A DNA stretch of 57,073 nucleotides from a virus (taxonomy: Duplodnaviria > Heunggongvirae > Uroviricota > Caudoviricetes), in IMG/VR virus record IMGVR_UViG_2923307698_000004. The stretch is one strand, 5' to 3'. Below, piece after piece: positions 25,001-34,000 of the stretch (positions are counted from its first letter, which is position 1; every line of letters begins with the position of its first letter). The position numbers are program-made.

Positions 25001-28000
25001 GAACACCCGCTGCAGATCCGTATCACACAGGACATCGCAGAACAGCGTCACATCCGCTTCCAGGTTACGGCGGGTTTTCGCCACCACCGACAGGGTATCG
25101 TCATCCTCTCCATCACCATTGAGCACTTCCTGCCACAGATACCAGGCCTCTGCCGAAGGCTCCCGCAGCACCACGCTGACATTACCCCATTCCGGCACCT
25201 TCACCGTTTTATGACGAAACCCTGACAGTCTGGCCAGCGCCAGCGTTTTCAGATCCTTTTTCATGATGTCGCATCCGGCACGGGCAGCCCGACAACGTTC
25301 AGGATCCGGTCACGCCAGGGACCACTCAGCACATGAAGTCGTGACGCTGCCGTGATTTCCCGACCGGACTGACCGCGCACCCAGATGCGGATTTCCGCCT
25401 GCGCCATTTCCGCACCAGACTGCATCCGCTCCCGGCTGCTCCTGCCACGGATATCCGCATGAATTTTCCCCGCATGACACCCATTCTTCCGTCATTTCTC
25501 CGGCAGCGTTACGGGTTAACACCGGGTTCAGAACACTTATCATCTGTGTCAGACGACCTGCAGATATTGCCATTCCCCCTCCTCATAACACCGTCGGACA
25601 ACGCAAATCGTAAATCAGCACGGAAACAGAAAACGGCAGCTCCCCCTGAAGCAGTTCTTCCCGCTCCGCAAGATCCGGATTCCGGTACAGCATCCCGGTC
25701 AGTCGCATGGCAGCCCCTTCATCCGGGTTAATGCCTCGCCCGGGATCAGTTCACCGTCCTCACGGATCACTTTATCCCGGCTGCCCTGAATGTAGGCCAG
25801 CAGCACGGCGGTAGCCTGACGAACCTTGTCCATCAGCATGTCATCATCCGCGTCATGGTCGACACGCAGATGTGCCTTGATCTCTTCCAGTGTCAGTAAT
25901 GCCGTCATTTTCAGCCTCCTGCATCCCGCCCACGTTTTGCAGCCAGGGTCCAGGCTGATGAATGAGCTTCTCCGGGTTTATCTTCGGTCATACTGTTGCA
26001 GTGCCACAGCGAGCCCCCCCACGTCACCGTATCGCCGGGGTGGTAGGTTTCACCGGCTCTGAACACACCGCGGTAGAGCATCACCGGCAGGGAAAATGTT
26101 TTTTCCGTACGCTGGCCACTGCTCTGCCGGACCACCACAGAGAACAACCGCTCACCCGTCATGCTGACGTCAATATCCGCCACCCCGTCAACCAGGCATT
26201 CCCATCCCGCATCCCGTGCGTTTTTTCATACGCCCGCCAGAGTCCGCCCTGGTGTGTGGCATACGTGCCCCGGGGAAAGGATTTTTGATCGTCAATGGCG
26301 GGGAGTATTTCCAGAGCCGTGGCATCACGCCCGTCCTGCGGAGCCGGCAGGGCACTCACCGCATCCAGAACCGCCTTCTGCAGAACATCCGGATCGTAGT
26401 CACGACCATCACGCGGAACATGAATATGGCTTACCGCCTCCTTCACCATCTGTTCAAGCATCGGACGCACATCATCCGGGGTGAGACTTTTACCGTCTGC
26501 CGGCTGCGGAATATTTGCGACCGCATCATTCACCGCCTTCTGCAGAACATCGGGATCATAGTCACGACCGTCGCGCGGAACAGGGATATGGCTTACAGCC
26601 TCCTTCACCATCTGTTCAAGCATCGGACGCACATCATCCGGGGTGAGACTTTTACCGTCCGCCGGTACCGGAATATTCGCAACCGCATCATTCACCGCCT
26701 TCTGCAGTACTTCCGGATCGTAGTCACGACCATCACGCGGAACAGGGATATGGCTTACAGCCTCCTTCACCATCTGTTCAAGCATCGGACGCACATCATC
26801 CGGGGTGAGACTTTTACCGTCCGCCGGCTGCGGAATATTTGCGACCGCATCATTCACCGCCTGCTGCAGTACATCCGGATCATAATCACGACCATCACGC
26901 GGTACCGGAATGGCCCCCACAGCGTCATCCACCATCGCCTGCAGAACCGGACGCACCTCATCCACCGTCACATGCTTCTGTAATACCGCCGACAGGGAAG
27001 TCAGTTTCTCTTCAAACGCTTGTGCCTGCGAGGCCATCTTCCCCTCAAATGTGCGCTGTAAATCCGCCAGCACCGTGGAGAATTCTTCTCCCAGTGCACG
27101 AATAATGGACAGTTCCCGTTCCGTCATTTTCTCAGTATCCCCCCTGAACATCGCTTTCACCGCATCATGCTCTGTTTCACTGATTGCCTTATTACCGTCA
27201 GATGCGCCGTCAGGCAGCTGTGATGAAACTGTTTTCCCGGCAGACGCGAACGGATCCTCACGGGCATCACGACGGGACAGCGCCTCCAGACTGTAGTTCT
27301 GCTGCTGAAGATACAGTGCATCACCGCCGGCCAGGGGCGGCAGGTTCTCCCGTTTACGGGCCTCATTGGGCGTGAGAAGCGTATTTTTCACCGCATCCCC
27401 CAGCGTTTTCATGCGCCGCTCACTGTCCATTCTCAGCAGCGTGGTGACATCAAATTCTGTACTCTCGTTTTCCCCCGTTTCCAGCGCCTCATCCAGTAAC
27501 AGTTCAATGGACTCAATCAGCGTCTGCAGGCACTGGGAATAATACTGCTGCTCCAGCGCCTCCACGTTGTCACTGGAAGGCGGTTGTCCCACGCCAATCT
27601 TGTAGGCCGGGACACGGAACACCGAACAGACAATTTCAGCGGTCATCTTCAGTTGTTCCACCGTCTGCGCATCCACAGGTGAAAACGTCGTGGGGTTGTA
27701 TTTTGCCCCGTTGCTCAGAATGGCCGTTTTCCCCGCATTTTCGCCTGTATACCCGCTGTCCCAGTTGCTCTTCAGTTTTTTCGCATTTTCTTCCGTAATA
27801 CTGCCGGGGATCTCAATCACCCCGGACGGCCTGCCGCCATTTCTGAAAAAAGACGTCGAATTTTCCTGAATATGATGCCCCTGCGTGGCCGCCAGCCCGG
27901 CGGCATACACCGGCGGCAATCCTATAAGCGGATGAAAAAAACAGTTAAACCGGTCGTGGATCACTTCCCGGGCAGGCACCGTCACCGCCTCCGTGATCCC

Positions 28001-31000: not shown

Positions 31001-34000
31001 CCGCCAGTGAATCCAGAATCTGCCCCACCCCTGACGGGTCAATACCGATATGGTCCAGTAACTCAGCCTCATGAATGCGACGCACATATTCCGCCACTTC
31101 CGCCGTGTCATCCCCGACACGCCGGACAATGGTCATATCTCCACAGGCAACAAGATCCTGAAACCGGGACGCCTCGCTCTTCCGTCGGACCACCGCGGTT
31201 TCATGCGCCCAGGCATGGCCCCAGCCCAGCCATTCGCGGGTCTCCCGGTCACGCCCAATCACATACATCCCCAGCAGATCATCCAGCCCTCCGCCGTCAA
31301 TCCCCACCGTCACCACATCAGCACGACGCAGGATATCGTCCAGGCTGATACAACGGCCCTGCTCTTCCCAGAAATCAGCCCCCGCCCAGCGGTCAGAGCG
31401 CAGGGCAAGACCAATTTCCACATTGGCGTGTTTTGACATGAACCCCCGGAATGTCTCTTCACCGGCTTCCCGGGCTTTACGGTACTCCCGGTACAGAAAG
31501 GCCTCATCCACTGAATAGCCGAGATTCGGATTGACCATGGCGAGGTTTTCCATCAGCAGGTTAGCCCCGCTTTCCACCATTTCAGGAGGGTGTTCAAATA
31601 TCACCGGCAGAAAGTGCGGATCATGAATTTTGCCGTCGCGCACATCCCGGGCGTACTGCAGTTTCTGTCTGAACACCCCGGCGGGCGGTTCATTCGACTG
31701 GGTGGTCGTATACACCACAAACCCTTCCGGGCGGGAGGCAAGGCCGCCTATGGCTTCACGTAACATGTCCTCCGCCTTGCACTGCTTGCCAAACAGCCAC
31801 AACTCATCAATCAGCGTACCCACGGACTTGATACCGGACACCGTATTCGGATCGGCTGCCACCACCTTCAGGGTGGTGTCCGTCACCCGGTGGGTGATGG
31901 TCCGGATATGGGTCTGTACCTGGCAGAGGTCATCCAGATCATCGTCACGTCGTACCATATCCCGGGCAGGGTTGAAGGCGTTGGCCGCCACCTCCACAGT
32001 CGGGGCCAGAATCGTGTAACCCGCCGCCTGCCGCCAGTTCAGTAACAGTGCAGTCATCATGATCCCCGCGGCCAGCGTGGACTTCGAGTTTTTCTTGGGG
32101 ATAAGGATAAAAACTTCCTTGATATGGCGTACACCGGTCTGCGCATCGTAGGAGCCAAACAGGGCCGCCACCAGGTCAAACACCCACGGTGCACAGGACT
32201 CCCCGAACGTAGGGCTACCAGGTGCATCCACAATCCGCAGTTGTTTAAAAATCGCCAGGGCATGTGCGGCCTCGTCCGGATAAATCGGATCCGGAATAAT
32301 CGACAGCCCCTTTTTCAGGCGCTCTGCCCAGTCCGGGCAGGCTGTGCTCCATACAGGTATCATCCGTTGCCCTCATTATCGTTATTCACCACCAGTCGGG
32401 GTGGCGGTGGCACCGCAAAACGGTTAGCCGCTTTTTTCGCGGCATCACCTTTTGCCGATTTTTTCCCGGTATCCCCTTTTTTATGGTGCGTGAACTGCGC
32501 CAGACGCCAGGCCGCATCCAGTGCCAGTTTCGGATCAATGCAGAGGTTTTCCACCAGGATCCGCCCCATGGCTTTCACCGGATCGGGAAGACCATCCTCC
32601 ATATATTCAATACCAGGAGACATCACCGCGGACGGTGGCATCTCCGGATTGTTTTCGTCCGGCTGTGGTATTGCAGCCGCCTCACGGCGACGGGGTTTAT
32701 CCTCCTGCTCTGATTTTTTCTGCCGGTAAACAGGAACCTCATCCACCTCCACCGTCTCGCATTGTTTACGGGCTATAAACGCAAGCACCTCAGGATCTTT
32801 TGCCAGCTGCGAGCCTTTAACCCTGGCGGTCTTCGCCGAATAACCGGCGGCAATGGCTGACGCTGTTTTGTTTTTCCCGGACATGAGCGCCAGCGCAAAT
32901 TTTCGTTTTTGCGTTGTCAGCACAGCCTCCTCCCGGGTCCAGAACGCACTCAGCCGGGTATGGTTCAGCCCATTTTTCCCGGCGTCTCATGCCGCAAATG
33001 TTAACTGCTGCCTGGTTAACATTTGCTGAAAAAGCCTGTTAACATTTTTTCCGCACAACAAACTGAATAATAAAGATAAAAACCGCAAAAATGCCCGGGC
33101 AGCCAGTTAACATGTTAACTGCCCTGAAACGGGAATTTTTTCTCTGCGTGAGAGGGGGCGCGGTGTCCAGGGCGATCGTTTTTTTTCGCCGGATGATCCC
33201 CCCCGGGTCTGGTCACAGGCCAGTGATTCCGTCGGCCCTGAGCGTGCCATCAGGAAGCTCAGGCAACGTCGGATCAGGCATACCACTCGCCGCTTCACTC
33301 GCTGACTTCTGGCGATGGCATTCAGTACAGAGGGTCCAGAGGTTCGTCTCCTCATTACCACCACCGAACTGAAGTGCAATGCGGTGATCGAGTTCACTGT
33401 CACAAAGGTCAACCACGCGTCTACAGAGACAACAGTGTCCGGCATCCCTCCGCCAGATACGACGTTTGAGGGAAACCCGGGCACTGCCACTGACACGACG
33501 CTGTTCCCCCCTCAGGACATTTATCCGCCGGGTGTTCAGAGTTTTGATTCTGCCCGGTAACGTACGAAGCACAGCCATGTAAAATCCTCGCCATATAGCT
33601 TGTCACCAGAGGAAAGAAAATGTCATCGAAAAACCGGACCCGCAGAACCACAATCCGCAATATCCGTTTCCCCAATCACATGATTGAACAGATCAATATC
33701 GCCCTTGAACATAAAGGTTCCGGTAACTTTTCAGCGTGGGTTATTGAAGCCTGCAGAAGAAGGCTGTCAACAGAGCGTTCGGGTATGAATTACATAATTA
33801 AGTAACATGGTGTTCACAGAACACACAGTTACCGGACACATCAGTTTTCCATTCGTCCCCCGGCAGTACAGGCTTCCCGTCTGACGGGATAGCCTGAAAA
33901 AACACAGAAAATTATTTGTTATAATTAATATAACTTACTCAAAAAAAAGCGACGAGAAAATCAGCATCAACGAGCAATAAGCGCCAATACGTGATAACAA

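Follow-up and report, generated by a model that had tools for sequence, protein, structure and literature searches.

In phage HK97, the gene for the large terminase subunit (TerL) is followed by the genes for the portal, the prohead protease, and the major capsid protein, with protease and capsid protein encoded separately. In the DNA stretch of 57,073 nucleotides (nt) studied here, referred to as the window (IMG/VR virus record IMGVR_UViG_2923307698_000004; Caudoviricetes), this canonical order was not found: a prophage head module carries a fused protease-capsid gene between the terminase genes and the portal gene. The first-pass annotation of the window had left two explanations side by side, namely an order specific for a phage lineage or a rearrangement that, together with decayed joining genes, would fit a defective prophage. 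The question raised by this locus is which of the two applies. The comparisons presented below indicate with high confidence that the capsid-before-portal order is the normal layout of a large and old lineage of HK97-like siphophages and is unrelated to the state of this prophage.

Identity and Order of the Head Genes

All genes of the head module are located on the minus strand, in the order HNH endonuclease, small terminase subunit (TerS), TerL, a 645-amino-acid (aa) protein combining an S78 protease with an HK97-fold capsid protein, a 73-aa open reading frame (ORF), and the portal. The order terminase, protease-capsid fusion, portal proved to be real, the corresponding ORFs being located exactly as first annotated, and profile hidden Markov models (HMMs) as well as a structure model agreed on the identity of their products. 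Ten ORFs around the head module, from the tape-measure gene to TerS, were scanned with Pfam and PHROGs; the head-gene assignments obtained with PHROGs and NCBIfam agreed with those obtained with Pfam, and neither a second portal gene nor a second capsid gene was detected among these ten ORFs. The HMM searches led to no reassignment of the 645-aa protein or of the 776-aa portal protein, and the unconventional order stands. Accordingly, the module is a relative of HK97 by its protein families, but not by its layout.

The protease-capsid fusion gene (28701–30638, minus strand; 645 aa) is intact, and its product is 99.8% identical to its counterpart in a prophage of Escherichia coli ST131. Pfam Peptidase_S78 (PF04586) matched at aa 48–152 with 34.7 bits (cut-off 21) and Phage_capsid (PF05065) at aa 386–635 with 53 bits (cut-off 24.2), while the NCBIfam model major_cap_HK97 (TIGR01554) aligned from aa 204 with 74.6 bits (cut-off 27.5). 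An AlphaFold2 model, computed with 69 homologues as input (mean predicted local distance difference test score, pLDDT, of 81), featured a compact N-terminal protease domain (aa 1–142), a disordered linker (aa 143–191), two long helices reminiscent of a delta-like scaffold (aa 195–262), and an HK97 fold (aa 342–642). A Foldseek search of the PDB with this model retrieved the capsid proteins of Bxb1, HK97, D3, and T5 with expectation (E) values down to 4.5e-15; the PDB sequence search returned a weak capsid match only. Two residues of the protease part, His55 and Ser110, are at least 90% conserved in the alignment of the 69 homologues. They represent putative catalytic residues, an assignment which we take from a comparison with gp4 of HK97. 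No separate scaffold gene was found among the ten scanned ORFs.

Relatives of the fusion protein are numerous: 1,195 cluster representatives were recovered at E ≤ 1e-30 from a library of 1.84 billion representatives, and the best 150 of these 1,195 were mostly full-length proteins of 630–680 aa. The NCBIfam model NF045541 (prohead protease/major capsid protein fusion protein) scored 53.1 bits against a cut-off of 525 and aligned to aa 48–287 only; the protein is, therefore, not a member of that family. Proteomic data on the fusion protein were not found in the PAJU2-related papers.

The terminase genes upstream of the fusion are likewise intact. TerL (30702–32363, minus strand; 553 aa; phrog_9) matched Pfam TerL_ATPase with 44.3 bits (cut-off 23.7) and TerL_nuclease with 37.9 bits (cut-off 24) and is 99.8% identical to the ST131 copy. 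TerS (32360–32923, minus strand; 187 aa; phrog_641) matched Pfam Terminase_2 with 36 bits (cut-off 26.1) and is 99.5% identical to the ST131 copy, without frameshift. Directly upstream of the terminase genes, a 121-aa HNH endonuclease is encoded (33213–33578, minus strand; Pfam HNH with 26.9 bits, cut-off 21.4), which is 83% identical to the protein annotated as HNH endonuclease in the ST131 prophage; relatives from Salmonella and Serratia carry an HNH gene at the equivalent position.

Between the capsid and portal genes lies the small ORF of 73 aa (28435–28656, minus strand), which matched phrog_829 (E value of 3.7e-39), had no Pfam match, and is 100% identical to annotated ORFs of the ST131 prophage and of Sakai. 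A homologue of this ORF occupies the equivalent position at 50 of the 77 related loci, among them those of the Moraxella and Burkholderia phages described below. The ORF overlaps the start of the portal gene by 55 nt and encodes a basic C-terminal tail.

Distribution of the Capsid-before-Portal Order

The 6,765-bp head region is 97.9% identical to the DNA of phage 2851 (Pankowvirus, Stx2c) over its full length and 95–99% identical to YYZ-2008, 1717, JLK-2012, BP-4795, and dozens of Stx1a/Stx2 phage records, with a query coverage of at least 80%, and the same gene order, in 91 of the 94 matching phage records. The ST131 prophage is 99.5% identical over the head region. Homologous DNA was detected in 1,258 of the 5,426 complete E. 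coli genomes; the median number of places per genome was six. In E. coli, the module belongs to the long-tailed lambdoid Stx/effector phages, represented by 2851, BP-4795, 1717, YYZ-2008, and Sakai Sp6, Sp9, Sp10, and Sp12.

Phage 2851, the ST131 and O26 prophages, and Sakai Sp10 share one layout: HNH, TerS, TerL, the 645-aa protein, the 73-aa ORF, portal, and connector, followed by head closure, gp10-like, gp17, major tail, chaperone, and tape-measure genes. BP-4795, YYZ-2008, 1717, and JLK-2012 likewise share with the window the order HNH, TerS, TerL, protease-capsid, portal, and connector. The order of the window is also kept in Salmonella and Serratia prophages, the fusion proteins of which are 75–77% identical, as well as, at 48% identity, in the phages vB_PaS_IME307 (Pseudomonas) and RHph_X2_26 (Rhizobium). 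Two further phages, vB_FUBS1 of Burkholderia and Mcat7 of Moraxella, encode protease and capsid protein separately, with both genes located between TerL and portal. As the order is retained in relatives in which the two genes are not fused, it is independent of the fusion. The synteny comparison with related prophages and phages, thus, returned the same order as in the window.

To this was added a systematic survey with a capsid-protein profile and one genome per species, which yielded 79 loci from alpha-, beta-, and gammaproteobacteria and a few metagenome-assembled genomes. TerL, protease, capsid, portal, the portal extension X (see below), and connector were mapped in these loci by means of HMMs built from seven annotated examples. 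At all 71 loci where both TerL and portal were located, the protease/capsid genes lie between them on one strand, and at no locus of the 77 in which a portal was found does it lie upstream of the capsid gene. Protease and capsid are encoded in one ORF in 58 loci and separately in 17. The lineage-specific order considered in the first-pass annotation is, hence, borne out by the functional phage 2851, by Sakai Sp10, and by the whole set of informative loci across Proteobacteria.

The arrangement is already known, as functional phages that have been published and annotated possess it and a paper of 2009 remarked on it. Asadulghani et al. described the head-gene organization of Sakai Sp6, Sp9, Sp10, and Sp12 as 'slightly different' from that of lambda (PMC2669165). 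According to the same study, Sp10 possesses all morphogenesis genes and was transferred to K-12, whereas Sp9 is defective in portal/head functions and yet had its DNA packaged, presumably through complementation, which has been documented in Sakai for co-resident prophages (PMC2669165). Long-tailed Stx phages of the 2851 group form siphovirus particles (PMC7946995). Regarding an explicit description of the capsid-before-portal order, nothing specific was found in the papers on phages 2851 and BP-4795.

Several points weigh against the reading of the order as a lineage trait of a module assembled in the manner of HK97. The loci of the survey were picked by capsid similarity, so that the observed constancy applies within this capsid lineage and not across all HK97-like phages. 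The NCBIfam prohead-protease model TIGR01543 scored 46.4 bits with the fusion protein, which is under its cut-off of 59. Finally, the literature searched yielded no experimental work on how heads of this lineage assemble, and the mechanistic steps outlined further below are, for this reason, inferred from HK97.

The Portal and Its Extension X

The 776-aa portal ORF (26159–28489, minus strand), recognized by Pfam and NCBIfam, comprises two parts. The portal proper (27128–28489, minus strand; aa 1–454) belongs to the HK97 family, and its frame is intact. Pfam Phage_portal (PF04860) matched at aa 54–382 with 272.9 bits (cut-off 39.1) and NCBIfam portal_HK97 (TIGR01537) with 349.8 bits (cut-off 112), the PDB sequence matches include the HK97 portal entry 8cez/8fql, and aa 1–450 align to portals of 451 aa in Salmonella and 449 aa in Serratia. 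The identification as portal, thus, holds, but the ORF does not represent the full protein, being a frameshift-truncated copy of an 861-aa protein; the 73-aa ORF in front of it had been missed in the first-pass annotation.

The second part, termed X, starts at Met455 (26159–27127, minus strand), and a 1-base deletion near 26209 ends its frame early. The remainder, consisting of the last ~90 aa with a beta domain, is located in another reading frame (25911–26183, minus strand). It matched positions 771–859 of the 859 positions of phrog_2271 and the C-terminal end of phrog_1289, corresponds to aa 762–861 of the intact protein according to tblastn, and showed a sub-threshold match to Pfam CBM_5_12 (20.7 bits versus 26.2).

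X (residues 455–861) is a separate gene in Sakai Sp10 (ECs_1975) and in the Salmonella, Serratia, Pseudomonas, and Rhizobium relatives, and it forms a separate ORF in 58 of the 60 loci that have X. Its position is 32828–34051 in L093 (Sakai Sp10) and 10492–11535 in L003. In Sakai Sp10, a portal of 454 aa and an X of 407 aa are encoded by two ORFs overlapping by 4 nt. The E. coli residues 455–857 align to the separate X of Salmonella, where the stop codon of the portal gene overlaps the start codon of X; in the E. coli protein, the two frames are merged, which would most simply be explained by one single-base change. The in-frame fusion of portal and X is common to the window, the ST131 prophage, and phage 2851, where the portal is likewise present in its long form (859 aa). 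A fusion arising as a lesion of the window only was ruled out, as both phage 2851 and the ST131 prophage carry it.

With respect to its architecture, X begins with a long helix, continues with 27/54-aa repeats in variable number, and ends in a beta domain with a C-terminal CBM5/12-like motif. In the window, a 162-bp (54-aa) tandem repeat is present in 3.3 copies of 92% identity, from 26370 to about 26902–26963. Among relatives, the length of X varies from about 205 to 557 aa, mainly by repeat number. The structure model of X achieved a low mean pLDDT of 56, and all Foldseek matches in the PDB had E values above 0.01, among them weak local matches to chitin-binding domains; in the BFVD, C-terminal ends of collagen-repeat, fiber-like phage proteins were matched with very low TM-scores. 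A PDB sequence search with X gave nothing meaningful, and a protein search with the E. coli X retrieved only near-identical partial E. coli portals and no added diversity. Taken together, the repeats, the motif, and these predicted structures hint at a fiber-like protein with a CBM5/12 tip. X has been named 'portal protein', 'gp6-like head-tail connector protein', and 'Carbohydrate binding domain' in NCBI records; the first two names look like misnomers.

Lesions Downstream of the Portal Core

The decay of the joining genes noticed in the first-pass annotation is evident in the sequence as given: connector and head-closure genes are both frameshifted, and a deletion follows. The gene for the gp6-like head-tail connector (25586–25908, minus strand) is frameshifted near codon 60 by a 1-base deletion at 25718; the match to Pfam Phage_connect_1 is confined to the first 55 aa, and the tblastn match is split in two frames. 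The remnant of the head-closure gene (25267–25573, minus strand) is frameshifted near codon 35 by a 1-base insertion at 25471 and lacks its last 14 codons, with tblastn matches to aa 1–36 and aa 34–102 of 116 in two frames.

At the deletion junction (25268–25276), approximately 1.6 kb were lost at a short imperfect direct repeat. Affected are the end of the head-closure gene and the HK97-gp10-like, gp17 tail-completion, and major tail subunit genes. Positions 17998–25276 and 25268–33774 of the window align to positions 1–7288 and 8904–17412 of the ST131 prophage (L001), respectively, and comparison with the O26 reference (L007) revealed the same ~1.6-kb deletion. Among the 5,426 complete E. 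coli genomes, none contains the junction.

Beyond the junction, the genes for chaperones G and T and the tape measure (21304–25264, minus strand) are broken by 15 small indels between 23745 and 24999, and their tblastn matches are split over several frames; the segment 23701–25276 contains only 4 substitutions besides these 15 indels. In all, 18 small indels were counted between 23745 and 26209, breaking the C-terminal extension of the portal, the connector, head closure, the G/T chaperones, and the tape measure. This patch of indels brackets the deletion junction.

As the sequence reads, and provided that the assembly is correct at the junction, the prophage would be defective, having lost essential morphogenesis genes, and would be unable to make tails. 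In these respects, it differs from phage 2851, in which the portal extension and the joining, major tail, and tape-measure genes are intact, and from Sakai Sp10, which is complete and transferable.

The damage to the joining and tail genes might, on the other hand, largely be an artefact of sequence quality, leaving a prophage with perhaps the deletion alone, or not even that. In comparison to the closest complete genome, 18 indels accompany 4 substitutions within 23701–26250, whereas each flank contains 7–8 substitutions and no indels. Seventeen of the 18 indels are single-base changes in short runs of 1–5 identical bases, the remaining one comprising 7 bp. The absence of the junction from all complete genomes, the best matches across the patch of only 98.7% and 99.7%, and the multi-copy nature of the region (median of six places per genome), which makes it hard to assemble and polish, point in the same direction. 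However, the adjoining terminase-capsid-portal stretch, although equally repeated, is without indels, the deletion junction is clean and coincides with a short imperfect direct repeat, and strains of this kind are well known to harbor defective lambdoid prophages with numerous lesions (PMC2669165). In our judgment, an artefact of this extent has a considerable chance of being true, if a somewhat smaller one than of being false. The indel patch as such may reflect either genuine decay or poor sequence in a multi-copy region. The lesions have no connection with the gene order, and some of them may be sequence errors.

Alternative Explanations for the Gene Order

A rearrangement of the head genes in this prophage or its recent ancestors, forming part of its decay, would be in keeping with the deletion and the many frameshifts just downstream of the portal, but is very improbable. 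The same order is present in intact, functional phages and at all 71 informative loci, down to 34–50% protein identity, indicating that it far predates this prophage and is unrelated to its lesions. The four order-defining genes are intact and 99.5–100% identical to those of intact prophages; in particular, TerS, TerL, the capsid fusion, and the 73-aa ORF show this degree of protein identity to the ST131 prophage. Moreover, no breakpoint, insertion sequence element, or repeat was found between the head genes.

A misidentification of the 645-aa or the 776-aa protein, with a conventional order behind it, has practically no chance of being correct, as nothing was found in its support except inconsistent NCBI labels for the portal extension and for the 645-aa protein ('major capsid protein' or 'prohead protease', depending on the record), whereas both proteins matched Pfam, PHROGs, and NCBIfam models above their cut-offs, structure model and Foldseek results agreed, and the ten scanned ORFs include no other portal or capsid gene.

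A Candidate Nested Start within the Fusion Gene

The protease-capsid fusion gene contains a candidate internal translation start (30060–30077, minus strand), composed of a Shine-Dalgarno (SD) motif, AAGGA, at 30077–30073 and an ATG at 30062–30060, which encodes Met193; the spacing between both elements is 10 nt. In the alignment, Met193 coincides with the first codon of the unfused capsid genes of the Burkholderia and Moraxella phages, and the representative library contains stand-alone capsid proteins, which start at query positions 193–196. Among the 58 fused genes, which originate from different species, 52 encode Met at exactly this position, and several of the remaining six encode Val or Leu.

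An SD-like motif is located 3–13 nt upstream in 38 of the 58 fused genes, compared to 7.7% of other codon positions. The predicted pairing with the anti-SD sequence at the internal site has a median of −5.6 kcal/mol versus a background of −2.1 kcal/mol in these genes and ranks within the best 10% of windows in 34 of them. The motif occurs in many different sequence contexts and inside an otherwise variable, disordered linker. Based on these sequence features, we consider it possible, with a chance just short of even, that the 645-aa gene yields two products, namely the full-length chain and the scaffold-capsid part alone, starting at Met193. If this is true, the protease would enter the procapsid on a minority of the subunits, and the nested start would represent a built-in control of protease dosage, in place of the C-terminal targeting peptide of the HK97 protease.

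Proposed Functioning of the Module and Comparison with Known Systems

By analogy with HK97, the following course of head assembly can be proposed. The head genes are probably co-transcribed in a late operon. HNH endonuclease, TerS, and TerL would cut and package the DNA as in HK97-type cos phages, as is to be expected from knowledge of these families. The inward-facing N-terminus of the capsid subunit would bear the delta-like helical scaffold and, in addition, its own protease, and shell assembly would be nucleated by the portal. In this manner, the protease would be built into the procapsid and would subsequently remove the N-terminal part.

The module resembles that of HK97 (gp1–gp5 and the HNH protein gp74) in its portal family, its S78 protease, its HK97-fold capsid protein with an N-terminal helical, delta-like scaffold, and the HNH gene adjoining the terminase genes; gp6-like and gp10-like connectors are also present in the lineage. 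It differs from HK97, in which gene 5 follows gene 4 (PMC8508860), in that protease and capsid are fused and precede the portal and in that the 73-aa ORF and X are additionally present. Sakai Sp10 features the same module and order, but portal and X are apart in Sp10 and in one frame in the window. Protease, scaffold, and capsid protein encoded by a single gene have also been described for Pseudomonas phage MD8 (PMC8508860), for Rhodobacter phages of the RcC cluster (PMC8601537), and for thaumarchaeal proviruses (PMC6563490). MD8 differs from the module studied here by its ClpP-type protease and Mu-like capsid protein.

Other Regions of the Prophage

The window represents a lambdoid prophage with early genes on the right and lysis genes in the middle, followed by the head module, tail genes, and effector cargo towards the left. 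Integrase, excisionase, exonuclease, repressor/Cro, and replication genes are located at the right end. In this early region, positions 45557–46315 and 46000–57073 are 100% identical to O103, O26-type, and O111 genomes; the region also holds dicB and the adhesin gene paa, and its fimbrial protein and DUF1627 genes are annotated as frameshifted in the reference. A protein of 617 aa, which combines the domains DUF1737, SASA (sialate O-acetylesterase-type), and DUF6645, is encoded upstream of the lysis genes (37445–39298, minus strand); its gene occupies the place where Stx phages carry an esterase-like gene adjacent to stx.

Positions 1–12000, beyond the tail-fiber genes, comprise cargo of low GC content (0.38–0.43), including the type III effector genes nleA, nleH1-2, nleF, nleG, and espM1, DUF1076 proteins, and degraded IS630/IS256 and integrase remnants. 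This region is 99.5–99.9% identical to the best-matching genomes, namely those of serogroup O121 and of bovine and human isolates.

Implications

For specialists in phage assembly, the candidate nested start could be of modest interest, and the same applies to X, whether fused to the portal or separate. The real defects of the prophage lie outside the order of its head genes, and part of them may be sequence error. For the annotation of phages and prophages, a capsid-before-portal order with a fused protease-capsid gene should not be counted as a sign of degradation or misassembly.

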